A stretch of DNA of 64,000 bases from Candidatus Heimdallarchaeum aukensis (GTDB lineage: Archaea; Asgardarchaeota; Heimdallarchaeia; Heimdallarchaeales; Heimdallarchaeaceae). Positions 6,017 through 39,683 of the stretch are shown here, in pieces. The translations under genes and the position numbers were made by a program. How positions within the stretch are numbered: the stretch's first letter is position 1; each line of letters opens with the position of its first letter. The notes beneath the pieces were generated by a model. That model did no database searches. It was not told the origin of the DNA and saw only the letters and a program-made list of their open reading frames with translations. The DNA lies in contig CP084166.1 in the NCBI GenBank assembly GCA_021513695.1, positions 768,001 to 832,000 of the forward strand, read 5' to 3'.

Positions 6017-6961
6017 TTGACAAAAAGGATTTTAGTAACTGGTAGTTACGGACAAATTGGTCAAGTTCTTGTTCCTGCTCTAATGAATAGATATGGAAAA
6101 GAAAATATTATTGCAACAGGAAGAAAAAAGATTCCTTCAGTTTTTAAAGAAAAAGATGTTCATTATCATCGATTGGATGTTCGAGACTTAGCACAAATGC
6201 AGACTCTTCTCGTTGAACACGATATCGATATCTTAATTCATAATGCATCTGTTCTTTCTGCTACAGGAGAAAAAAATCCTCAACTTGCACATTCAATTAA
6301 TTTTGAAGGTTTTTATAATGCTTTAGAAGCCACAAGAATGCTAAATCTTGAACAACTTTTTGCTCCAAGTTCTATTGCAGCTTTTGGCCCATCTACTCCA
6401 AGAGAGAATACTCCTAATGATGTAATCACTCGACCTACTACAATATATGGAATAAGTAAAGTCTATATAGAGCTAATGGGAGAGTACTATCATCAGAAAT
6501 ATGGTTTGGACTTTAGATCTCTTCGTTATCCTGGAGTAATTTCTCCTGAAGAACCTGGCGGTGGAACAACAGATTGGGCAATATGGATTTTCTGGGAAGC
6601 TTTACGTAATAAAAAATACACTTGCTTCTTAAAAGAAGATACTTCTCTTCCAATGATGTATATGCCAGACTGTATTAAATCCACTATTGATTTAATTGAA
6701 GCAGATAATTCAAAGCTTGAACATCGTTCATTTAATGTAACCGCATTTAGTTTAGCTCCCAAAGATTTAGTAGAACCTATAAGAGAGGTTATTCCTGAAT
6801 TTAAAATAGCATATGAACCTGATTTTAGACAACAAATTGCTGAATCTTGGCCAGCTTCAATTGATGACAGTGTAGCTAGAAAAGAATGGGGTTGGAAACC
6901 TGATTACGATATTCCTGCTATGACAAAAGATATGCTAGAAAAAATATCCAAAATGATTTAA
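6017..6961 (+). CDS. tdh: L-threonine 3-dehydrogenase, UDP-glucose-4-epimerase-like (extended SDR) type
   Basis: VTGSYGQIGQ Rossmann motif, YGISKV (YxxxK) and PGGGTTDWAI are characteristic of SDR-type TDH. TTG start with GGTGA 8 nt upstream. Confidence 0.7.
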   Translation: MTKRILVTGSYGQIGQVLVPALMNRYGKENIIATGRKKIPSVFKEKDVHYHRLDVRDLAQMQTLLVEHDIDILIHNASVLSATGEKNPQLAHSINFEGFYNALEATRMLNLEQLFAPSSIAAFGPSTPRENTPNDVITRPTTIYGISKVYIELMGEYYHQKYGLDFRSLRYPGVISPEEPGGGTTDWAIWIFWEALRNKKYTCFLKEDTSLPMMYMPDCIKSTIDLIEADNSKLEHRSFNVTAFSLAPKDLVEPIREVIPEFKIAYEPDFRQQIAESWPASIDDSVARKEWGWKPDYDIPAMTKDMLEKISKMI

Positions 6962-7104
6962 TTTATTTTGCATTAGTATGTAAAATTCTTTAGCAAATTT
7001 TTTTTCCATTTTTTATAGTTTAGGACTTTTTAAGCACAATGATTATTTGAAAAATATCATCTTTAAGAAAAATTAAAAAGGAAAAAACAAATGAACGGAA
7101 TGGA

Positions 7105-8541
7105 ATGAAAATAATGAAAGAAGGATTAACTTTTGATGATGTTCTTCTTATTCCTAAACGTTCCTCTGTCCGCTCTAGACGAGAAATAGATACTTCTACA
7201 CAGTTATCTAAGAATATTAGATTGAACATCCCTATAGTAAGTGCAAATATGGACACAGTTACAGAAAGTGCGATGGCTATTGTTATGGCACAACAAGGAG
7301 GAATAGGAATCATACATCGATTTATGCCTATAGTTGAACAAGTAAACGAAGTTAACAAAGTTAAACGTGCTGAAATGATAAGAATTGACAATCCTTATTG
7401 CTTAAAGCCTGAAACCTCGTTACAAGAAGCTAAAGAGTTTATGAAAGAAAAAGGAATATCAGGATTGCTCATTACAGATAACAATAACATTTTACAAGGA
7501 ATTCTTACTTCACGAGACATTAAATTTACAGAAGATGAAAATGTTTTAGTAAAAGAACTAATGTCAACAGATCTTATTACAGCAAGACCAGATATTTCGA
7601 TTGAGGAAGCAAAAAATATTCTAAAGAAGAATAGAATTGAAAAACTTCCCCTTGTTGATGAAAAAGGAGTAGTAAGAGGACTAATAACAGCAACAGATAT
7701 TATCAAGGCTAAAATATTACCTAAAGCAAGTAAGGATTCTAAAGGAAGGTTAAGAGTAGGTGCAGCAATAGGAGTAGTAGGAGATTATTTAGAAAGAGCA
7801 GAAGCCCTTTATAATGCTGGAGCTGATGTTCTAGTTTTAGATATCGCACATGGTCATTCAGATTTGGCAATAAATGCAATAAAAGAAATTAGAAAGAATC
7901 TTGGAGATGTAGAATTAATTTCGGGAAATGTTGCTACAGCAGAAGGAGCAAAAGATCTAATTGAAGCGGGTAGTGATGGAATTAAAACTGGAGTGGGGCC
8001 AGGTTCAATATGTATAACAAGAGTAGTGGCAGGAGCTGGTGTTCCACAACTTACAGCTATAATTGAAACATCAAAAGTAGCTAAAGACTATGGGGTGCCT
8101 GTAATCGCAGACGGAGGCATTCGTACTTCAGGAGATATTACTAAGGCTATAGCTGCAGGAGCACAAACAGTTATGATTGGAAGCTTACTAGCAGGAACTG
8201 AAGAAAGTCCTGGAGCAGCTATTCTAAGACATGGGAGAAGATATAAAGTTGTCAGAGGAATGGCTTCTCTTGGAGCTACATTAGGTCGAGAAGCAAAAGA
8301 AAAGAAAGGAAGTTTTGACGAATTTGATTTAGGTTCTGTGGTTCCAGAAGGAGTAGAAGCAATGGTGCCATATCGTGGTTCAGCAGTAGACGTATTGAAT
8401 CAGCTAGTAGGTGGATTTAGAAGTGGTGTAAGTTACTGCGGAGCTTCTTCGATTCCAGAAATGCAAGAAAAAGCAGAATTTATAAAAATAACCTCTGCAG
8501 GAAGAAAAGAATCAACATCACATGATGTAGAATTAATTTAA
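7105..8541 (+). CDS. guaB: IMP dehydrogenase with CBS pair insert
   Basis: [24 protein letters not shown], a CBS region, and [24 protein letters not shown] with ADGGIR. Confidence 0.95.
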
Positions 8542-31142: not shown

Positions 31143-32327
31143 TTACAACTTTCTATTTTTTCTTGATAATTGAACTATTTTTTTTATTACTACAAATTCT
31201 GTTTCATTTAGGACGTTTTTTGTGATTTTTATTTTTTCTTGCTGAATTCTTACTTGGTTTGCATATTCATTCTCAACTAATAGCTCCATCTCCTCTGTTA
31301 TCGCTCCATCTACATTTGTTTTAATAACTTCCATGAGGTTATTATATTTTTCTAGTATTTTTTCATAAACAGCTAATTTTGAAGAGAATTTTGATGTATA
31401 CTTATTTATTTCTTCAGCTCGTTTAATGTCTATAGAAGTTAAACTATCAGTAGCTTCAGATAAATCTCTTAATTCTTCTTCACTAAATTCTCTTTTAACA
31501 AAACTTGAAATTATAGAAATAAGTGATTTATCCAGCAAATAATCTGTTTTTCTCTCATAGCTTATACTAGGGATTGATTTTGATAGAGAAGATTTTTTAC
31601 TTTTGAAGGTAGTATCTTTTTTTTCTGTTGTTAAATACTTTTCAACAAGAACTAATTTTTCATTCCACCATTCCTTAAAAGAAAGACCAGGAGTATATTC
31701 AATAGCAAAATTTAGAAAAATTGTTCCTTTAGCTAAAACTGTTGCGCCTATAGGTTTTTTGAATATGGGTTTACTTGTTCTTTTACCTACAAAGTCATAT
31801 GTACTAAAAGAATGAAAGTTTGAGGGAAGATCTTTTGCTTTACCAAAAAAAATTATTTCTTTTCCAAGATTTGCTAAATCTTTGAGATCTCCTAAAGTTA
31901 CTAAATAATCTTCTCCTAACGAAAGATAAACAAGATCATAAGTTTTTTTGGATAATTTTCTAACAGATTCTGGAATAGCTAATTTTTCTGCTCTTTCTTT
32001 TATTGCTTTTTTTGATAAGCCTGAAAAAGTGCACTCATAAGGAGGAAGAAGTTCATTCTCATTAACTAATCCAAAACCTGCAGAAATAATGTAATAATCA
32101 ACTTCAGCTTTTGACGAAAGAATCTTAACAGCTTTTTTTATTGCAAGAGCTTGTCCACCTATGTATAATTCTCCTGCTTCTCTTAATAATGAAGAAAATT
32201 TTTCTTTTGCACTTTCTCTTTGATCTTTTGTTTCTAGGTCCTTACATGTTGGTTGATCATCATGTTGTACAGACTTTTTCTTTCCACAAGAGTTAATAAC
32301 AAGTATTGAAGGTTTCAGAGATCTCAC
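31143..32327 (-). CDS. DUF6884-like N-terminal domain fused to a long coiled-coil
   Basis: ILVINSCGKKKS, ELYIGGQA and YYIISAGFGLVNENELLPPYECTF match my recollection of the DUF6884 pattern (SC.k.K .. LY .. ilSA..GL..p...l.PYd). The C-terminal ~170 aa are heptad-rich. Confidence 0.45.
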   Translation of the reverse strand: MRSLKPSILVINSCGKKKSVQHDDQPTCKDLETKDQRESAKEKFSSLLREAGELYIGGQALAIKKAVKILSSKAEVDYYIISAGFGLVNENELLPPYECTFSGLSKKAIKERAEKLAIPESVRKLSKKTYDLVYLSLGEDYLVTLGDLKDLANLGKEIIFFGKAKDLPSNFHSFSTYDFVGKRTSKPIFKKPIGATVLAKGTIFLNFAIEYTPGLSFKEWWNEKLVLVEKYLTTEKKDTTFKSKKSSLSKSIPSISYERKTDYLLDKSLISIISSFVKREFSEEELRDLSEATDSLTSIDIKRAEEINKYTSKFSSKLAVYEKILEKYNNLMEVIKTNVDGAITEEMELLVENEYANQVRIQQEKIKITKNVLNETEFVVIKKIVQLSRKNRKL

Positions 32328-32333
32328 CTAAAG

Positions 32334-32753
32334 CTATTCAGTATCCTTTTTTGCCAAATATCGATTATAAAATCTTTTAATTTTCTTTTTTTCGAGATCA
32401 AAATCTAGATCTTTACTATTTTTGCCTTCTTGCCTTTCCATTTTATTGAGTTTACTTTGAATTTTGCTTAGTTTTAGAGCAAGCATTGAATTTCTTCTAA
32501 AAAGTTCACTGTTTTCAAAAAACAAAACCCCATATGCTTTTCTAAGTTTACTATACTTTATTGTTAATTCATTATATCGTTCTCTTAATTCTTCAAGATT
32601 CTTAAGTAGACTAACCTCATCAATTTGTAAATCCTCGCTGTTTAATGCCAGAAAATCATAATAATCAAGGAGTGTGTTAATTATATCATCAGTATATTCA
32701 GTAACATCTTCAAAAATAGCAGGAATCTTGACATTAGTGATCATTTTCTTCAT
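32334..32753 (-). CDS. coiled-coil protein
   Basis: 139 aa, helical and charged. Its start overlaps the upstream stop by 4 nt, and a 6-nt gap separates it from the downstream gene. Confidence 0.5.
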   Translation of the reverse strand: MKKMITNVKIPAIFEDVTEYTDDIINTLLDYYDFLALNSEDLQIDEVSLLKNLEELRERYNELTIKYSKLRKAYGVLFFENSELFRRNSMLALKLSKIQSKLNKMERQEGKNSKDLDFDLEKKKIKRFYNRYLAKKDTE

Positions 32754-33106
32754 TTTGCTACACCTTTTAGAATACCATCTAACTTCTCTTCAAGTTCAGT
32801 AATAACATTATAATCTTCATTATATTCTTTCTTCATTTGTTTTTCTTCTTCTATACTTTTTTTCAATTTTTCAATTTCTTTTTCTCTTTCTGGAATTTTC
32901 TCCAAAAGAGCCTTATATTCTAGTATATACTCCACAAATGCCCAAGAAAGCTTTTTTTCTTTGTTATATTCTGTAAGAAACTTAAAAAATTGGTTTACTT
33001 TTTCTATTATTGTTTCAGATTTTTCCTTTCTCTCTTCAGCGATTCTAGCAATTTTTCGCTGAATTCTTGAGGAAAAAGAAATCTTTACTTTCTCTTGTTT
33101 TTTCAT
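32750..33106 (-). CDS. possible ribbon-helix-helix DNA-binding domain plus coiled-coil
   Basis: The N-terminus KVKISFSSRIQRKIARIAEERKEKSETIIEKV fits the strand-helix-helix of CopG/Arc-type RHH. The remainder is coiled-coil. First gene of the minus-strand trio. Confidence 0.4.
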   Translation of the reverse strand: MKKQEKVKISFSSRIQRKIARIAEERKEKSETIIEKVNQFFKFLTEYNKEKKLSWAFVEYILEYKALLEKIPEREKEIEKLKKSIEEEKQMKKEYNEDYNVITELEEKLDGILKGVAK

Positions 33107-33246: not shown

Positions 33247-33576
33247 ATGGAAGAAATAAGTGTCAAGGAGTATTTAGAAAAATCAGGACAATTACTAGAA
33301 AAATATAGATTTAATATTGAAAATCTTCGACATCAGAGAAAACAAATAGAACAGAAATTTTTCCTCCCTCACGAGATGGTTGACTTTTTTCATACAAATA
33401 AAAGCGAATACAAAGTTTGGTTAAAAATTCAAGACATGATTCTCACACTTGAAGATGCTTATGCAGACCTAGTTGGGAGTATGATGGAAGCAAAAGCTAA
33501 CCCTGATAATTATAATTATTATTTAGAAGACAAACGTATTACAATTATGCAACTAAAAGAAACTGAAGAAGAATAA
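33247..33576 (+). CDS. small helical hypothetical protein
   Basis: 109 aa, charged and helical. Diverges from the trio and precedes the phosphoesterase gene. Confidence 0.45.
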   Translation: MEEISVKEYLEKSGQLLEKYRFNIENLRHQRKQIEQKFFLPHEMVDFFHTNKSEYKVWLKIQDMILTLEDAYADLVGSMMEAKANPDNYNYYLEDKRITIMQLKETEEE

Positions 33577-33678: not shown

Positions 33679-35265
33679 TTGATGAGATTTGTTTTATTTT
33701 CTGATACCCATATTGGTGGAAGATATGATGAAATGATATTGATGAAAGGTATAGATTTTATTAATAACATTGATGGAGATATTTTTATTCACTGTGGAGA
33801 TTTAACTGGTTCTGGCACTTTGGCTGAATATGAGATTGCTAGACTTTATTTAGAAAAAATCAAGAAAAGGCCTTTTTTCATTGTTCCTGGAAATCATGAC
33901 TGCAAAAATGTGGGTGATTTACTTTTTGAAGAAATAGTTGGTGAGCGTTTTTGGGTAAAGACATTCGAAAAAAAGAAAACTCGGATTCTTGGTCTTGACT
34001 CTACTGAACCCGATGCAAATACTGGAAGAATGGGTCCTAAATCAATAAAAAGAATTTATGAAGAATTTGAGGATTTACCAGAATATTGGTTAAAAGTTTT
34101 AGTTTTTCATCATCAGACTTTACCAATTCCCTATACTGGTAGAGAAAGAAGTGCAATCAAAGATGCAGGAGATGTAGTGAAAGCTATTCTTGATTGTAAC
34201 ATTCATCTTGTTTTCAATGGTCATAGGCACATTTCTAATGTCTATAAGATGTCTGATGGAGTAGTAAATGCTTGGATTATTAATGTTGGTACATTATCTT
34301 GTAAAAAAACTAGATATAGAGAAGAGTATAGCTTAACTGTCGTTGATGCTTCTTTAAAGAAAAACAACCTTGCTATTCGTAGTATACTACTTAAGAAAGA
34401 GCCTATCAGAGAAGTTGTAAAATATTCTGGTAAATTCCAACGTTTTATTGCCCCTATGAATAAGAAACACATAGCAACAATAATTCAAATAGGCAATACA
34501 GCTTTTTCTAATTCACGATTTAGGATGGGTAATTTCTACAAAGGTCTCGAAACAATTAATCTCATCCCTTGTGATGTAGTTGTCCATTGTGGAGAAGTTA
34601 CAGGTGCCTCCTATGTCAATGAGTTTCAAAGAGCAAAGGCTTTATTATCTCAAATAGAAAAACCTCTTATTGTTGTTCCAGGAGATAATGATGCTTTTCC
34701 ACTTGGTTGGGATTTGTTTCCTGAGTACATTGGTGATCCTAACCCCTATTTTGAGAATGAGCATTTGATTGTTAAAGGGTTCAATACTTGCTTAATTGAC
34801 GAACAAGAGGGAAGACTCGGAAGAGGAAATATGAAAGAGATGATAACAACATTTGAGAATAAATCAAAAATAGGAGTAGTAGCTTTTCATCATTCAATAA
34901 TGCCTTTACCTCACTCTAAACATGATGCAGAGCTAATAGATGCAGGAGATGTTCTTGCTGCCATAGTAAACCACAGAATCAATCTCGTTTTAACTGGAGC
35001 TAAAAATAGAAGCGGGTGTTGGCAAGTTAACGACACTGTATTTGTAAATGCTGGAACACTCAGCTCTGAAAATATTACTACAAGAGACGGAAATAGTTTC
35101 AACATAATAACCATTAGCCAAACAGATATAGGTAAACTTTACGAGGTCGATGAGTATTTTGTTGAAACAAACGAAAGAAAAACTATTGGAGTTTTCCATA
35201 TTTCTGATAGGGGGATACCTATTCTCATTCCTGATAGAAAGGTTCCCAACACCATTCATTTATGA
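33679..35265 (+). CDS. tandem calcineurin-like metallophosphoesterase: intact N-domain plus degenerate C-domain
   Basis: Domain 1 has FSDTHIG, CGDLTGSG, PGNHD, FHHQ and NGHRH. Domain 2 has IGNTAFS, CGEVTGAS, PGDNDAF, FHHS and TGAKNRS at the same positions, so most metal ligands are lost. Confidence 0.8.
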   Translation: MMRFVLFSDTHIGGRYDEMILMKGIDFINNIDGDIFIHCGDLTGSGTLAEYEIARLYLEKIKKRPFFIVPGNHDCKNVGDLLFEEIVGERFWVKTFEKKKTRILGLDSTEPDANTGRMGPKSIKRIYEEFEDLPEYWLKVLVFHHQTLPIPYTGRERSAIKDAGDVVKAILDCNIHLVFNGHRHISNVYKMSDGVVNAWIINVGTLSCKKTRYREEYSLTVVDASLKKNNLAIRSILLKKEPIREVVKYSGKFQRFIAPMNKKHIATIIQIGNTAFSNSRFRMGNFYKGLETINLIPCDVVVHCGEVTGASYVNEFQRAKALLSQIEKPLIVVPGDNDAFPLGWDLFPEYIGDPNPYFENEHLIVKGFNTCLIDEQEGRLGRGNMKEMITTFENKSKIGVVAFHHSIMPLPHSKHDAELIDAGDVLAAIVNHRINLVLTGAKNRSGCWQVNDTVFVNAGTLSSENITTRDGNSFNIITISQTDIGKLYEVDEYFVETNERKTIGVFHISDRGIPILIPDRKVPNTIHL

Positions 35266-35343: not shown

Positions 35344-36627
35344 ATGCACAAAGAGGTAAAAAATTCAAAAAACGTTTCTTTTCCAGTTGTAATAAAAAAT
35401 TTAGATGAGAGAATGAATAAATGGTTGAAAGAAGCACAGAAACGTATATTTAGTATTGCTGCAGGAGATAGGATTTCATTCATAGCTTCTGCCATAGCAC
35501 AAGTTGGTTTTGGCAAAATCCTCTATGCTGCAAATGAACTTGGGGTTGATATTGAAAAAACCAAACCATACATTTTTTTTGCTCCTGACGGAACTTGCTC
35601 ATACAACGAAATTAGAATAAAAAGAGGTTTTACATATGGTTGTATATTCAAAGCAGATTTCGAGGGACTGATTGGTACTAATAACTCAATGCCAAACGGT
35701 TGTGGATATAGCTTATATGAACTTAAAGATTGGAACGATGATGAAACTCTAATCAGAACTTTAAACCAAATAAAGCAAAATATAACAGAAGAACAAGCAA
35801 AAGAACTAGGAAAAGGCAATCATTTTATTGCTGTTTACAAGGTTTTAGACGCTATATCAGGAGAAGATACAGAAAGGAGAATGGTATTACTTCATTGTAG
35901 TGGGCATGATTTAAGCAAAAAACCACTTTATTTCTTCAACTGGTTAGAAGAAACAGATGGATGTCATAAAGTACAAACACCACATGGAGAAATTTACCTT
36001 TTAGAAAGTGAGGCAAAAAAGAGATATATCAAAGAATTTGAGAAACTTGACAAACACAATAAAGAAGCTCGTGTCACTGTCATGAAAGAGTTGTTTAGAG
36101 ACTCTTCCTATGAATTAATTTCAAGTATCACTCACCAAGGGTTATATAATAACGGTTCATATCATTTTTTGGGAATACAAAAAAGCGAAAAACTTATTCC
36201 TATAGCTTTCAATGCAGATGAAGGAGGAATTGCTGTCAAGACAAAGAAGAATCTGTCAGGACAATTTATAGATCAATGGAAACAAGGAACAAGAGTGAAA
36301 GATTTAGGATATGAAAGAGAATTTAAAGAGCTCAACTTTACTCCACACGGAGGAGGATACGAATTCAAATACCCAATCAAACGTTTTGTTATATTCTTAA
36401 ATGATCAAGGACTGGATCACTTCTCGGTTGAATTAAAAAAGCCGAAAGAGCCAAGTATTAAACTTATTGCTTCCTATTTCAAACCTATTAGAGAATACAT
36501 GACATATAGGAGAAAGTTACCAGTAATGAAAGAAGTCTTTAAAGCGGAGCTAGCAAACCACATTTATGATCTTGTTCCATTTATGCAATTACATCCTAAA
36601 GTTAGTATTCCTGGAGGACATTACTAA
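35344..36627 (+). CDS. hypothetical protein with RtcB-like motif series (possible divergent RNA ligase)
   Basis: Ordered motifs MPNGCGYS, LGKGNHFIAVYKV, VLLHCSGHD and FTPHGGGYE resemble RtcB PD.H.G.G, G.GNHF.E, HSGSRG and HGAGR. The spacing differs from canonical RtcB. Confidence 0.3.
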   Translation: MHKEVKNSKNVSFPVVIKNLDERMNKWLKEAQKRIFSIAAGDRISFIASAIAQVGFGKILYAANELGVDIEKTKPYIFFAPDGTCSYNEIRIKRGFTYGCIFKADFEGLIGTNNSMPNGCGYSLYELKDWNDDETLIRTLNQIKQNITEEQAKELGKGNHFIAVYKVLDAISGEDTERRMVLLHCSGHDLSKKPLYFFNWLEETDGCHKVQTPHGEIYLLESEAKKRYIKEFEKLDKHNKEARVTVMKELFRDSSYELISSITHQGLYNNGSYHFLGIQKSEKLIPIAFNADEGGIAVKTKKNLSGQFIDQWKQGTRVKDLGYEREFKELNFTPHGGGYEFKYPIKRFVIFLNDQGLDHFSVELKKPKEPSIKLIASYFKPIREYMTYRRKLPVMKEVFKAELANHIYDLVPFMQLHPKVSIPGGHY

Positions 36628-36651: not shown

Positions 36652-37395
36652 ATGCATTCTAACCCTTACATTATAGCTCATCGGGGTTTTTCTTCTAAAT
36701 ACCCCGAAAATACTATTCTAGCGATTAACAGGTCAGTAGGAATAGCAGATATTGTTGAATTTGATGTTCAACTTACAAAAGATAGGTATGTAGTTTTATT
36801 TCATGATGAAACAACAAAAAGGATTTTCCCAGAAATCGAGGAGAAGAGAATCCAAGACTTATATTATCATGAACTAAAAGAATTAAATGCTGGTAAATGG
36901 TTTTCATCAAAAATAGAAAAACAAACTATTCCCAAACTCGAGGAAGTAGTAGAAAAGATAAACAACAAAATCTCAATGATTATTGAATTAAAGAACAAGG
37001 GAAATAAAGAAAAAAAAGAAGAACTAGCTACTATAGTATTGAATATCCTAGATGACAACAATGTCTCTTTAAACAAAGGGTATCTTTCAGTTCGAGACTT
37101 AGAAATGCTTGAAATTATTAACTCTCTTTCTTCAAAATACAGAATTGGATTAATGCAGAAAACGAGAACACCGGAAGAATTTATAGAACTAGTTAAAAGT
37201 AACAATCTTGAATTTGCTCAAATAAGATGGAAGAATTGGACTGAGAGTAATTGGCAAGAACTTTTGTCTTTAGAAACTAAAATTACTGCTTTTTATGCTG
37301 ATGAAGAAAAAGAATACAATTTTTTAATTGAAAAACAAGTTTATGGAATTTTCACTAATTTTCCAGATAGATTAAGAAAACTGCTGAACATGTAG
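36652..37395 (+). CDS. glycerophosphodiester phosphodiesterase
   Basis: IIAHRGFSSKYPENT, EFDVQLTKDRYVVLFHDET. Confidence 0.85.
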   Translation: MHSNPYIIAHRGFSSKYPENTILAINRSVGIADIVEFDVQLTKDRYVVLFHDETTKRIFPEIEEKRIQDLYYHELKELNAGKWFSSKIEKQTIPKLEEVVEKINNKISMIIELKNKGNKEKKEELATIVLNILDDNNVSLNKGYLSVRDLEMLEIINSLSSKYRIGLMQKTRTPEEFIELVKSNNLEFAQIRWKNWTESNWQELLSLETKITAFYADEEKEYNFLIEKQVYGIFTNFPDRLRKLLNM

Positions 37396-38242: not shown

Positions 38243-38788
38243 GTGATACAGAGGAACTACAAAATAATACTTATTGGAAATGCTCTTGTTGGAAAAACTG
38301 CTATTGTAACACGTTTTGCTAAAGATTACTTTGAACAGAACTATTTGAGAACGCTAGGAATCAATTACTACATAAAGACACAAGTAATTACTAATGTAGA
38401 AGTAAAGATGATTATTACAGACACCGCAGGACAAGAAGCGTTTCAACGCCTAAGAAGTTCGTATTACAAGGGGGCAAGAGGAGCAATAATTGTTTATGCA
38501 ATAAATGACAGACATAGCTTTGGACAAGTTGATTATTGGAAGAATGAAATGTTCAAGACTTTAAAAGAAATCCCAATAATAATTGTCGGAAATAAAATTG
38601 ACTTAATCGATCAAAGAAGAATATCAACAAGTGAAGGACGCTTGTTAGCGAAAAAATTGGGTTGTTTATTTATTGAATCATCTGCTAAAACAGGAGAAAA
38701 TATTGATAAAATCTTTGAAATGATAGTTAAAGATATACTAAGAAAAGATAATTTAATAACAGAAGAAAAAGAAGAAAGTTCTACTTAA
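38243..38788 (+). CDS. Rab-like small GTPase
   Basis: G1 is GNALVGKT, G3 is DTAGQE, then YYKGARGAIIVY, G4 is GNKIDL and G5 is SAKTGEN. There is no C-terminal Cys, so no prenylation motif. Confidence 0.85.
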   Translation: MIQRNYKIILIGNALVGKTAIVTRFAKDYFEQNYLRTLGINYYIKTQVITNVEVKMIITDTAGQEAFQRLRSSYYKGARGAIIVYAINDRHSFGQVDYWKNEMFKTLKEIPIIIVGNKIDLIDQRRISTSEGRLLAKKLGCLFIESSAKTGENIDKIFEMIVKDILRKDNLITEEKEESST

Positions 38789-38918: not shown

Positions 38919-39683
38919 ATGCTAGAAAGAGTTTTTTTTATTTATTACCAGTATATCTTTTTATCTTTAGGTATAGTAACTTTTTTTCTATTACTTAGAA
39001 TTACAGCTCCTTATGGGAAACATTTTTCAGAAAAATTTGGTCCTTCAATTAAAGGTTCTTGGGCTTGGTTGATTATGGAATCACCAGCAGCAATTACGAC
39101 TACGATTCTATTCTTACTTTCGCTAAAAGAACTATCACTAGTTCCTGTGCTTTTGGTTTGCATTTTTTGTATTCACTACTACCCTAGAGATTTTATTTAC
39201 CCTTTTTGGGCTAGAAGAGAAGCAAAAACACCTTTGATTATTATGTTCTCTGCTATATTCTTTAATATTAGCAATGCTTATCTTCAGACTAGATGGTTAC
39301 TCAAATTCGCTCCTGAAGATAAGTATACTATTAGTTGGCTTTATAGTCCCCAATTTATTGTTGGAAGTTTACTATTTATTTTAGGATTTATATTTAATCG
39401 AAAAGCTGAATTCTCATTAAGAAAACTAAGAAAGAAAGGAGAAAGTAGTTACAAAATACCCTATGGGGGAATGTTTGAGCTTATATCTTGTCCTAACTAC
39501 TTCTTTGAAATTATTGAATGGATAGGTTGGGCAATAATAACTTGGTCAATTCCAGGGCTTGTATTTATGATTTGGACTATAGCTAATCTTGGCCCAAGAG
39601 CAGTTAGCACGCATAACTGGTATAAAAATAACTTTCCAAATTATCCAAAATCAAGAAAAGCTCTTATTCCATTTGTTTTTTGA
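38919..39683 (+). CDS. SRD5A-like steroid-5-alpha-reductase / polyprenol reductase family protein, paralog 2
   Basis: APYGKH, HYYPRDFIYPF, YKIPYGGMFELISCPNYFFEIIEWIGWAIITWSIPGLVF, THNWYKNNFPNYPKSRKALIPFVF. Collinear with the 19716..20537 product. Confidence 0.85.
   Translation: MLERVFFIYYQYIFLSLGIVTFFLLLRITAPYGKHFSEKFGPSIKGSWAWLIMESPAAITTTILFLLSLKELSLVPVLLVCIFCIHYYPRDFIYPFWARREAKTPLIIMFSAIFFNISNAYLQTRWLLKFAPEDKYTISWLYSPQFIVGSLLFILGFIFNRKAEFSLRKLRKKGESSYKIPYGGMFELISCPNYFFEIIEWIGWAIITWSIPGLVFMIWTIANLGPRAVSTHNWYKNNFPNYPKSRKALIPFVF

Follow-up and report, generated by a model that had tools for sequence, protein, structure and literature searches.

Calcineurin-like metallophosphoesterases (PF00149 / PF12850) are among the best-studied hydrolases, and the superfamily is recognised by five motifs, DxH, GD, GNH[D/E], H and GHxH, which together supply seven metal ligands and the catalytic histidine. 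M. tuberculosis Rv0805, E. aerogenes GpdQ, E. coli CpdA/Icc and rhizobial SpdA carry all five on a single domain and form homo-oligomers in which every site is active. The same fold also has non-catalytic members, namely Vps29 of retromer, Plasmodium GAP50 and the B-subunits of eukaryotic replicative polymerases, which have lost the metal ligands and serve as scaffolds. Active and inactive copies are joined in the receptor-type protein tyrosine phosphatases, where an active D1 domain is followed in tandem by a D2 pseudo-phosphatase. Among RNA repair systems, bacterial Pnkp/Hen1 combines a kinase, a metallophosphoesterase and a ligase.

Here we describe a protein of Candidatus Heimdallarchaeum aukensis, encoded in a 64,000-nt stretch of DNA (the window), in which two calcineurin-like copies are fused and one active site appears to be left. 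Its first half, domain 1, has the five motifs as they occur in Rv0805, GpdQ, CpdA and SpdA, whereas those enzymes are single-domain proteins with no inactive partner. Domain 2 resembles Vps29, GAP50 and the polymerase B-subunits in fold and in the loss of metal ligands; unlike these free-standing or otherwise fused scaffolds, it is half of a tandem with a putatively active sister. Vps29 and GAP50 were among the Foldseek structural matches, and no specific sequence relationship of domain 2 to any of the three scaffolds was found. The receptor-type phosphatases share the logic of an internal duplication in which the proximal domain is catalytic and the second, though degenerate, is conserved for regulation or structure, although they are eukaryotic membrane receptors with an unrelated fold and chemistry (cysteine phosphatases). 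Finally, as in the Pnkp/Hen1, RtcB-RtcA and RtcB-archease systems, the metallophosphoesterase is encoded beside a protein with a predicted RNA-ligase fold (Table 1).

Table 1. Features of the tandem metallophosphoesterase locus, in positions of the window
Feature	Position	Strand	Evidence
Tandem metallophosphoesterase ORF, 528 aa	33679..35265	+	ORF list; Pfam Metallophos 6.4e-19
Domain 1, residues 1-256, intact binuclear metallophosphoesterase (predicted)	33679..34446	+	Invariant site; profile and Foldseek matches
Domain 2, residues 260-515, degenerate copy (predicted)	34456..35223	+	BLASTP against domain 1; AlphaFold2 model; conservation
Divergent RtcB-fold protein (predicted), 427 aa, no Pfam assignment	35344..36627	+	Fold search; hhalign; motifs
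GDPD family protein, 247 aa, third cluster gene	36652..37395	+	Pfam GDPD PF03009 7.2e-31

Results

The initial annotation had read the open reading frame as a tandem metallophosphoesterase with one intact and one catalytically dead copy, and our analysis confirmed this, down to the limits of the frame. The frame is uninterrupted. Its listed start is TTG, and the ATG at 33682 is more likely the true start because a 94%-identical homologue is 527 aa long. We collected 376 homologues, of which the full-length members measure ~490-570 aa, and found the locus to be collinear with the complete Ca. Heimdallarchaeum endolithica genome at 83.8% nucleotide identity. The two halves had been proposed to align motif on motif, and BLASTP matched them with 32% identity over 203 columns (E=5e-33), while a global alignment gave 74 identities in 237 columns with the motifs superimposed; the ten motifs quoted originally all read identically in the translated frame. 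Structure prediction, suggested at the time as a check for two calcineurin-like folds, agreed: the AlphaFold2 model (pLDDT 93.2, pTM 0.91) has 17 secondary-structure elements in each half, in the identical order E-H-E-H-E-H-E-E-H-E-H-E-E-E-E-E-E, and residues 516-528 form a low-confidence tail. Both domains also keep a non-catalytic DAGD motif and, in the model, a C-terminal three-strand cap.

Domain 1 carries the motifs D9-T-H11, G40-D41, G71-N-H-D74, H144/H145 and G181-H-R-H184, and so has all nine canonical residues (D9, H11, D41, N72, H73, D74, H145, H182 and H184). This DHDNHDHHH signature is invariant in 115 homologues, with the exception of N-terminally truncated sequences and one H73R substitution, as well as in 45 tandem loci (all complete loci), and the nine positions have zero entropy within the 55-member Heimdall-type clade. 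Pfam Metallophos (PF00149) matched residues 2-185 with 69.6 bits, above its gathering threshold of 21.5 bits. Beyond the catalytic motifs lie the subfamily motifs G154-R-E-R157, D162-A-G-D and K210-T-R212, followed by the beta cap; G-R-E-R and K-T-R are invariant, belong to domain 1 itself and set it apart from Rv0805, GpdQ, CpdA and SpdA. We conclude that domain 1 has the motif set of the calcineurin-like superfamily and that its sequence preserves a complete, invariant two-metal catalytic site.

Several searches place the protein among known enzymes. A profile of domain 1 and its single-domain relatives matched Rv0805 at 1.1e-19 and GpdQ at 8.3e-19, and Foldseek ranks 1-7 were all GpdQ or Rv0805, with target-normalised TM-scores of 0.63-0.79. 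The best solved structure covers at most ~0.39 of the tandem model by TM-score; the Foldseek search returned no solved structure spanning both domains, and the libraries searched contained no dedicated family model for the fused active-plus-dead architecture. By sequence and model, the tandem protein thus appears nearest to the class III phosphodiesterases, in the broad Rv0805 / GpdQ clade. The scores for SpdA (NF050112, 42.1 bits against an equivalog cut-off of 400) and CpdA (NF008359, 37.3 bits against 225) lie far below these NCBIfam thresholds, indicating a relative of CpdA and SpdA and not an orthologue.

In domain 2 the corresponding motifs are G272-N-T-A275, G305-E306, G335-D-N-D338, H404-H405 and G440-A-K-N443. 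Its site (N273, A275, E306, D336, N337, D338, H405, A441, N443) reads NAEDNDHAN against the canonical DHDNHDHHH, so that seven of nine residues are lost, two are canonical and the full catalytic set is absent. What persists is D338, H405, an invariant G381-R382 loop and D421-A-G-D, and domain 2 taken alone still matched Metallophos_2 at E=1.7e-5 (25.4 bits, just below the 27-bit cut-off). Homology and predicted fold both point to membership of domain 2 in the superfamily.

Loss of the site was accompanied by drift. Within the Heimdall-type clade, positions 273, 275, 306, 336 and 337 fall in the 51st-80th percentile of domain-2 variability (entropy), and former ligand positions accept Gly, Val, Pro, Met and Ala. 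Restoration of a full metal site by alternative ligands had been named as an observation that would overturn the claim of a dead copy, and no alternative ligand set is conserved in this clade; because the five former ligand positions vary freely there, a substitute metal site does not appear to be maintained. The loss of seven residues, the drifting ligand positions and the contrast with the zero-entropy site of domain 1 bear out the claim, and we infer that domain 2 is catalytically dead. Its remainder is not drifting in this way: columns conserved at 90% or more number 23 in domain 2 vs 53 in domain 1, and mean pairwise identity is 39% vs 48%, a pattern that indicates purifying selection on the rest of the domain. 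With the site lost and other residues constrained, domain 2 can be classed, on sequence grounds, as a pseudoenzyme domain.

Across the family, the domain-2 site keeps 8/9 canonical residues in members labelled Bathyarchaeota and Hydrothermarchaeota, 6-7/9 in some Loki-type members, 4-5/9 in other members and 2-3/9 in the Heimdall type. None of the homologues and loci scored had a domain 2 with 9/9. As judged from these sequences, the loss in this protein is the end of a graded series that runs from 8/9 down to 1-2/9. In a neighbour-joining tree, domain 1 clustered with the single-domain sequences and domain 2 lay outside this group, while the domain-1 and domain-2 subtrees were broadly congruent; this congruence and placement suggest that the tandem probably arose in an ancient single event. 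The initial annotation's internal duplication with a pseudo-enzyme copy therefore stands as to homology and site loss, and needs amending in that it is not peculiar to one gene: the duplication is family-wide and probably ancient.

Downstream of the tandem gene lie two further genes (Table 1). The first belongs to a family of 170 members, nearly all labelled 'hypothetical', and is predicted to have the RtcB fold. Its score against Pfam RtcB (PF01139) was 10.9 bits (E=0.27), below the gathering threshold of 27, and 22 of 59 family members matched this model at E<=1, the best at 1.8e-4. A PDB sequence search with a five-sequence profile gave nothing meaningful, and the RtcB relationship emerged only from the fold search and from hhalign, which aligned only the GNHF and H-x-S motifs with a probability of 80% (E=1.3e-5). 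The protein contains P-N118-G-C120-G, G-N159-H160-F, H184-x-S186, H264-Q-G-L and P-H335-G-G-G-Y, and C120, H160, H184, H264 and H335 are invariant, in RtcB-like motifs that are collinear; in E. coli RtcB (from NC_000913.3) the metal-binding Cys/His residues and nucleophilic His are C78, H168, H185, H281 and H337. No canonical RtcB was found in the retrieved DNA.

The third gene scored 108.6 bits against GDPD (PF03009), above the 23.6-bit cut-off. GDPD is present in the window and in five other loci (L001, L003 and L005-L007), and in every Heimdall-type locus with enough flanking sequence it is part of the cluster; an HD-domain phosphohydrolase takes its place in Loki- and Bathyarchaeota-type clusters (L002, L004, L013 and L087). 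Pairing homologues of the two proteins by equal length of the longest contig gave about 27 matches, and the one pair checked (3486 nt) proved false. Counting only loci that were inspected individually, the RtcB-fold neighbour was verified in 12, and GDPD or HD accompanied it in all but one, a contig-end fragment. The RtcB-like neighbour was absent within 7 kb in 34 of 46 tandem loci, mostly of the Loki 'NLNFTDHSS' subfamily, and in other archaea it was found without any metallophosphoesterase, so that the link between the tandem and the RtcB-fold protein is subfamily-specific.

Some further observations concern the surroundings. Synteny in the unlinked Loki subfamily reflects the close relatedness of the genomes and gives no functional clue. 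The 109-aa ORF upstream (33247..33576) is not conserved between loci and was ruled out as part of the module. We also rejected an anti-phage defence system: PADLOC gave only a generic metallophosphoesterase match (candidate PDC-S10, 1.1e-16) and no matches for the RtcB-like and GDPD genes. The 64,000 nt contain no tRNA genes and no Rfam families.

Discussion

We favour, with moderate confidence, the interpretation that this is an ancient tandem class-III-type phosphodiesterase, a covalent pseudo-dimer with one catalytic centre that probably acts in phosphodiester or RNA-end processing. The protein would be a covalently joined 'heterodimer', imitating the homodimer that its single-domain relatives form: hydrolysis of phosphodiesters would fall to domain 1, while domain 2, as a pseudo-protomer without catalysis of its own, would stabilise domain 1 and may present a surface to a substrate or a partner protein. 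The substrate-binding or regulatory role proposed in the initial annotation may likewise belong to domain 2. The idea of a pseudo-dimer draws on the high pTM of the model and on analogy, and such a role would fit because the closest enzyme, Rv0805, is dimeric and becomes almost entirely dimeric when metal is added (PMC4320098). Gene context suggests that its partners may be the RtcB-fold protein encoded next to it and a further phosphoesterase, which is GDPD here and HD elsewhere. The enzyme would then most likely process phosphodiester or cyclic-phosphate ends, whether of RNA or of nucleotides, before or in parallel with nucleotidyl transfer or ligation of the RtcB type. The initial annotation suggested RNA ends with a 2',3'-cyclic phosphate or a 3'-phosphate as substrates to try, and the RtcB-fold neighbour lends this indirect support. 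In RNA repair, calcineurin-like and HD domains have been described as interchangeable end-healing phosphatases (PMC7824862).

A more specific version of this pathway, which we regard as improbable, is that the tandem, the RtcB-fold protein and HD/GDPD make up an archaeal heal-and-seal module not described before, which would be concentrated in the Asgard archaea and the Bathyarchaeota and act on RNA or on another phosphodiester polymer or nucleotide. The dead domain 2 would then serve as a platform for docking or for positioning the substrate, linking the trimming of ends by domain 1 to RtcB-like nucleotidyl transfer, and the loss of its site in the Heimdall type would accompany the swap from HD to GDPD. 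The putative module differs from the known heal-and-seal systems in several respects: its ligase-fold partner scores far under the Pfam RtcB threshold, it is without a kinase, methyltransferase, cyclase or archease gene, and its phosphoesterase is duplicated, with one copy dead.

The same architecture could instead serve lipid or glycerophosphodiester turnover, with a GpdQ-like diesterase working beside GDPD and an RtcB-fold protein that is not a ligase. The top structural and profile matches do include the glycerophosphodiesterase GpdQ, and this similarity and the GDPD neighbour, present throughout the Heimdall-type clusters, would suit glycerophosphodiester or lipid head-group metabolism equally well. 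However, Loki- and Bathyarchaeota-type clusters have HD where Heimdall-type clusters have GDPD, so that the second phosphoesterase looks generic, which speaks against glycerophosphodiester chemistry. The constant partner is the RtcB-fold protein, whose Cys motif and four His motifs appear to follow the order seen in RtcB. Because Rv0805-type enzymes are promiscuous, likeness to GpdQ leaves the substrate undefined, and we consider a lipid pathway unlikely.

As to origin, a fusion between two paralogous metallophosphoesterase genes that had diverged beforehand, in place of duplication in situ, could account for the position of domain 2 in the neighbour-joining tree, and it gains from the 33-41% identity of domain 1 to single-domain actinobacterial proteins, comparable with its 31-32% identity to domain 2, and from one locus (L046) in which the gene takes the form of two ORFs, divided where the domains meet. 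Faster evolution after loss of function would also push domain 2 outside in a distance tree, however, and the subfamily-specific DAGD motif and the cap are common to both domains. The matches to domain 2 alone that we inspected had degenerate motifs, were indistinguishable from fragments or split genes and included no intact free-standing gene of the domain-2 type. We therefore think fusion quite unlikely and retain a single ancient duplication as the preferred origin.

It is also conceivable that domain 2 is alive, with N273, E306, D336, D338, H405 and N443 forming a non-canonical mononuclear or oxygen-rich metal site that catalyses another reaction or, by binding a phosphorylated ligand, acts as an allosteric sensor. 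Potential O/N donors occupy five of the seven metal-ligand positions in this protein, the six residues could in principle hold one metal, and D338, H405 and N443 are fixed or nearly so in the Heimdall clade; moreover, since distant members retain 6-8/9 canonical residues, metal binding may persist in some copies of domain 2. Against this, relatives with at least 50% identity have D, N, E, G or S at position 306, P, D, V, G or T at 336, D, E, A, S or H at 275 and N, M, S, T or A at 273, a spread unlike that of a maintained ligand shell. In motif V, Ala and Asn, both fixed, stand where the two histidines were, and the motif-III Asn is absent even from the best-preserved copies. A living domain 2 is accordingly very doubtful, and a dead pseudo-protomer remains our preferred reading. 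The idea that the tandem is an error of annotation or assembly, or a pseudogene in decay, found no point in its favour and is refuted to near certainty by the uninterrupted frame, the collinear relative, the confident model and an architecture common to more than 100 full-length homologues from several archaeal phyla.

The tandem is real and, as a variation on a well-known enzyme family, only moderately surprising. Searches of the accessible literature returned nothing relevant on tandem or duplicated metallophosphoesterases or on archaeal RtcB with a metallophosphoesterase. Pseudo-domains born of duplication are a familiar theme, and the finding has no bearing on a long-standing open question. 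Its value lies in the series: with relatives at 8, 6-7, 4-5 and 2-3 of nine residues, the family offers a natural set in which to study how a duplicated domain of an enzyme turns into a pseudoenzyme without the protein ceasing to work. In addition, the conserved association with an RtcB-fold protein that lacks annotation points to a pathway for phosphoester processing, so far uncharacterised, in Asgard archaea.

Two homologous halves in one chain

The initial annotation described a tandem metallophosphoesterase gene, and the open reading frame (ORF) is present as described, on the plus strand. Its listed start codon is TTG, and because ATG follows directly and homologue P0001, 94% identical, has 527 residues, the ATG at 33682 is probably the true start. 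Translation exactly matched the motif sets that had been read in both halves: D9-T-H11, G40-D41, G71-N-H-D74, H144-H145 and G181-H-R-H184 in domain 1, and G272-N-T-A275, G305-E306, G335-D-N-D338, H404-H405 and G440-A-K-N443 at the equivalent sites of domain 2. BLASTP of residues 1–262 against 263–528 gave 32% identity over 203 columns (E = 5e-33), and in a global alignment 74 of 237 columns are identical and all motifs line up. By these alignments the similarity is well above chance, and the halves are homologous, motif for motif, as had been claimed. Pfam assigned residues 2–185 to Metallophos (69.6 bits); domain 2 scanned by itself matched Metallophos_2 slightly under the gathering score (E = 1.7e-5).

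Features of the window (window positions)
Feature	Position	Strand	Remarks
394-aa protein, N-terminal DUF6884 (1.2e-7)	31143..32327	-	also PADLOC DpdC models, 1.3e-10
Small coiled-coil ORF	32334..32753	-	beside the DUF6884 gene
Small coiled-coil ORF	32750..33106	-	beside the DUF6884 gene
Tandem metallophosphoesterase	33679..35265	+	528 aa
RtcB-fold neighbour	35344..36627	+	427 aa; 78-nt gap after tandem gene; no Pfam/NCBIfam assignment
GDPD-family gene	36652..37395	+	24-nt gap after RtcB-fold gene; Pfam 7.2e-31
Ras-family small GTPase	38243..38788	+	Pfam Ras 6.7e-53, Roc 4.3e-28
3-oxo-5-alpha-steroid 4-dehydrogenase (steroid/polyprenol reductase) family membrane protein	38919..39683	+	Pfam 2.7e-55

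Structure prediction, proposed earlier as a check for two calcineurin-like folds, returned both. In an AlphaFold2 model built on the 78-sequence alignment A1 (mean pLDDT 93.2, pTM 0.91), residues 2–252 and 263–509 have an identical order of 17 secondary-structure elements (E-H-E-H-E-H-E-E-H-E-H-E-E-E-E-E-E), each half being predicted as a calcineurin-like core with a three-strand beta cap after it. This pTM is high for a chain of two domains and suggests that their relative arrangement is fixed. Foldseek against the PDB ranked GpdQ (2zo9, 2dxl, 3d03) and Rv0805 (3ib7, 2hy1, 2hyo, 2hyp) highest, with E-values of 4e-12 to 6e-11 and target-normalised TM-scores of 0.63–0.79; since the query-normalised TM-score never exceeded 0.39, no solved structure among these matches spans both domains. 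Profile A4, made from domain 1 and single-domain relatives, matched Rv0805 (1.1e-19), GpdQ (8.3e-19) and Lmo2642 (1.2e-14), which places domain 1 among the class III phosphodiesterases, broadly defined. It scores far under the cut-offs of both the CpdA and SpdA equivalogs of NCBIfam and is a new, divergent branch of that class.

Domain 1 is intact and domain 2 has lost its site

Save for N-terminally truncated sequences and one H73R, 115 full-length proteins all carry the nine canonical residues of domain 1 (D, H, D, N, H, D, H, H, H), and so do the 45 tandem genome loci. Not one of these proteins and loci retains all nine (9/9) in domain 2, where, judged from the aligned residues, site loss is a graded series across the family.

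State of the nine canonical positions in domain 2
Residues	Canonical	Members
DHD(P/S)HDHHH	8/9	including Bathyarchaeota- and Hydrothermarchaeota-labelled: P0098, P0101, P0107, P0109, L004, L013, L042
e.g. NHDNNDHHH, NHDDTDHHH	6–7/9	some Loki-type members
various	4–5/9	Thermococcus, Theionarchaea, others
e.g. NAEDNDHAN (the window's protein)	2–3/9	Heimdall, Hod and Kari clade, and a large Loki subfamily

Within the Heimdall-type clade (55 relatives of the window's protein at 50% identity or more), the former ligand positions 273, 275, 306, 336 and 337 lie at the 51st–80th percentile of domain-2 entropy and tolerate Gly, Val, Pro, Met and Ala. The clade shows no variation at D338 and H405 and almost none at A441 and N443. 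The entropy profile of these 55 members showed no conserved replacement set of metal ligands. With the ligand positions variable and no alternative ligand shell conserved, the proposal that the second copy is a pseudo-enzyme is borne out at the sequence level: the domain-1 site is intact and invariant, and the domain-2 site degenerate and unconstrained. The rest of domain 2 is, by residue conservation, still constrained and not free to drift, with 23 columns at least 90% conserved vs 53 in domain 1 and a mean pairwise identity of 39% vs 48%. It retains the DAGD motif of the subfamily and an invariant G381-R382 loop of its own. Missing from it are G-R-E-R and K-T-R, invariant in domain 1, where they may be substrate contacts.

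Distribution and origin of the family

Among 5.8 billion proteins searched there were 376 relatives. Nearly all of the top 120 are 490–570 aa long and span 90% or more of the query; where named, relatives are called 'metallophosphoesterase family protein' or, generically, 'CpdA' or 'Icc protein'. Their source labels, taken from MAG records, are Heimdallarchaeota, Hodarchaeales, Kariarchaeaceae, Thorarchaeota, Promethearchaeota (Loki), Borrarchaeum and Harpocratesius, with a few Bathyarchaeota and some labels, such as 'Spirochaetales', that may be binning errors. Scanning a genome collection added Hermodarchaeota, Theionarchaea, Thermococcus MAGs and Hydrothermarchaeota. Among the best 80 matching loci, the nearest single-domain relatives (33–41% identity) all come from Actinomycetota and related bacterial MAGs. 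The tandem family is small: 1.84 billion cluster representatives, searched exhaustively by HMM, gave 18,131 superfamily matches, and only about 29 of these were full-length tandems at the 50%-identity level.

In a neighbour-joining tree of the separated domains, domain 2 falls outside the cluster of domain 1 and single-domain relatives, and the internal orders of the two subtrees are broadly congruent, a pattern consistent with a single ancient duplication or fusion after which both domains co-evolved. As to homology of the halves, the initial annotation's internal duplication stands; whether it arose in situ or by joining two paralogues is a distinction that this rough, distance-based tree does not make. 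At one locus of an uncultured archaeon (L046:6938-8535) the gene occurs as two overlapping ORFs, 6938-7774 and 7732-8535, meeting near the domain boundary, either through a frameshift or assembly error or as a natural separation into domain-1 and domain-2 proteins.

Linkage to an RtcB-fold gene

Over 14.9 kb, the stretch around the tandem gene aligns collinearly with Candidatus Heimdallarchaeum endolithica PR6, a complete genome, at 83.8% nucleotide identity. The family of the downstream neighbour has 170 members, nearly all 'hypothetical protein' and one 'RtcB family protein'. Comparing its profile with E. coli RtcB, hhalign gave 80% probability (E = 1.3e-5), pairing G-N-H160-F with G-N-H168-F and H184-x-S with H185-S-G-S. 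Motifs at the invariant residues C120, H160, H184, H264 and H335 are collinear with those around C78, H168, H185, H281 and the nucleophile H337 of E. coli RtcB. Because the neighbour is under the Pfam RtcB threshold (10.9 vs 27 bits) and matches in 22 of 59 family members are sub-threshold, we call it a divergent RtcB-fold protein, outside the curated RtcB family.

Counting individually inspected loci only, RtcB-fold homologues adjoin tandem genes at 12 verified loci in archaea, the window included. They occur with GDPD at Heimdall-type L001 and L003, with an HD phosphohydrolase at Loki-type L002 and L087, with HD at L004 (unlabelled metagenome) and L013 (Bathyarchaeota), and also beside the tandem gene at L005–L007 and L009; versions from different loci share 25–29% identity (E ~1e-21 to 1e-28). 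Linkage of the tandem gene to an RtcB-fold gene and a second phosphoesterase is conserved in part of the family. At 34 of 46 inspected tandem loci, mostly of a Loki subfamily whose domain 2 is dead, no RtcB-fold gene lies within 7 kb, and RtcB-fold proteins also occur without a metallophosphoesterase in other archaea; the linkage to the RtcB-fold gene is subfamily-specific. At RtcB-linked loci, HD (L002, L004, L013, L087) accompanies a well-preserved domain 2 (6–8/9) and GDPD a decayed one (2–3/9), an association drawn from few independent lineages and confounded by phylogeny. In Loki-type clusters (L002:11492-12868, L089:1309-2688) a protein of ~458 aa is encoded after the RtcB-fold gene; it has only weak ATP-grasp matches (YheCD/sugar-transfer/TTL type, E ~2e-3 to 6e-2) and could be a fourth module component in that lineage.

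Further along the window, the small GTPase belongs to the eukaryote-like signature proteins that Asgard archaea typically carry, and the steroid 4-dehydrogenase family is known mainly from eukaryotes. The DUF6884 protein has a long coiled-coil-like tail. GC content is 26–34% across the whole 64 kb, in which no tRNA gene or Rfam family at gathering score was found.

Proposed function

Contacts made by beta-strands hold Rv0805 together as a dimer, and on addition of metal nearly all of it is dimeric (PMC4320098). Because the closest characterised enzymes are oligomers, the simplest reading is that the tandem would be a hard-wired dimer: fusion would have fixed the pairing, one of two sites would then have become dispensable, and domain 2 would serve as a structural pseudo-protomer and possibly also as a binding surface.

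As to substrate, the main functional rival is a glycerophosphodiester or lipid head-group role, suggested by similarity to GpdQ and by the GDPD gene and weakened by the presence of HD in place of GDPD in other lineages. 2′,3′-cyclic nucleotides are substrates of Rv0805-type enzymes. RNA repair systems with RtcB or other ligases are described as using either calcineurin-like or HD domains as the phosphatase that heals the ends (PMC7824862). On these two grounds we favour a role in which the tandem enzyme would trim or convert cyclic or 3′-phosphate ends beside an RtcB-like nucleotidyl-transfer step. That the tandem, the RtcB-fold protein and HD or GDPD form a hitherto undescribed heal-and-seal module of Asgard archaea and Bathyarchaeota, in which domain 2 acts as the coupling platform, we consider unlikely.

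Active and dead metallophosphoesterase copies in one chain have no solved PDB representative by Foldseek, and we did not find this architecture in the literature searched, where absence is no proof of absence elsewhere. Its evolutionary logic resembles that of the tandem D1-D2 receptor tyrosine phosphatases and of kinase/pseudokinase pairs. Vps29 and GAP50, both among the Foldseek structural matches, are non-catalytic metallophosphoesterase folds, and domain 2 joins them.
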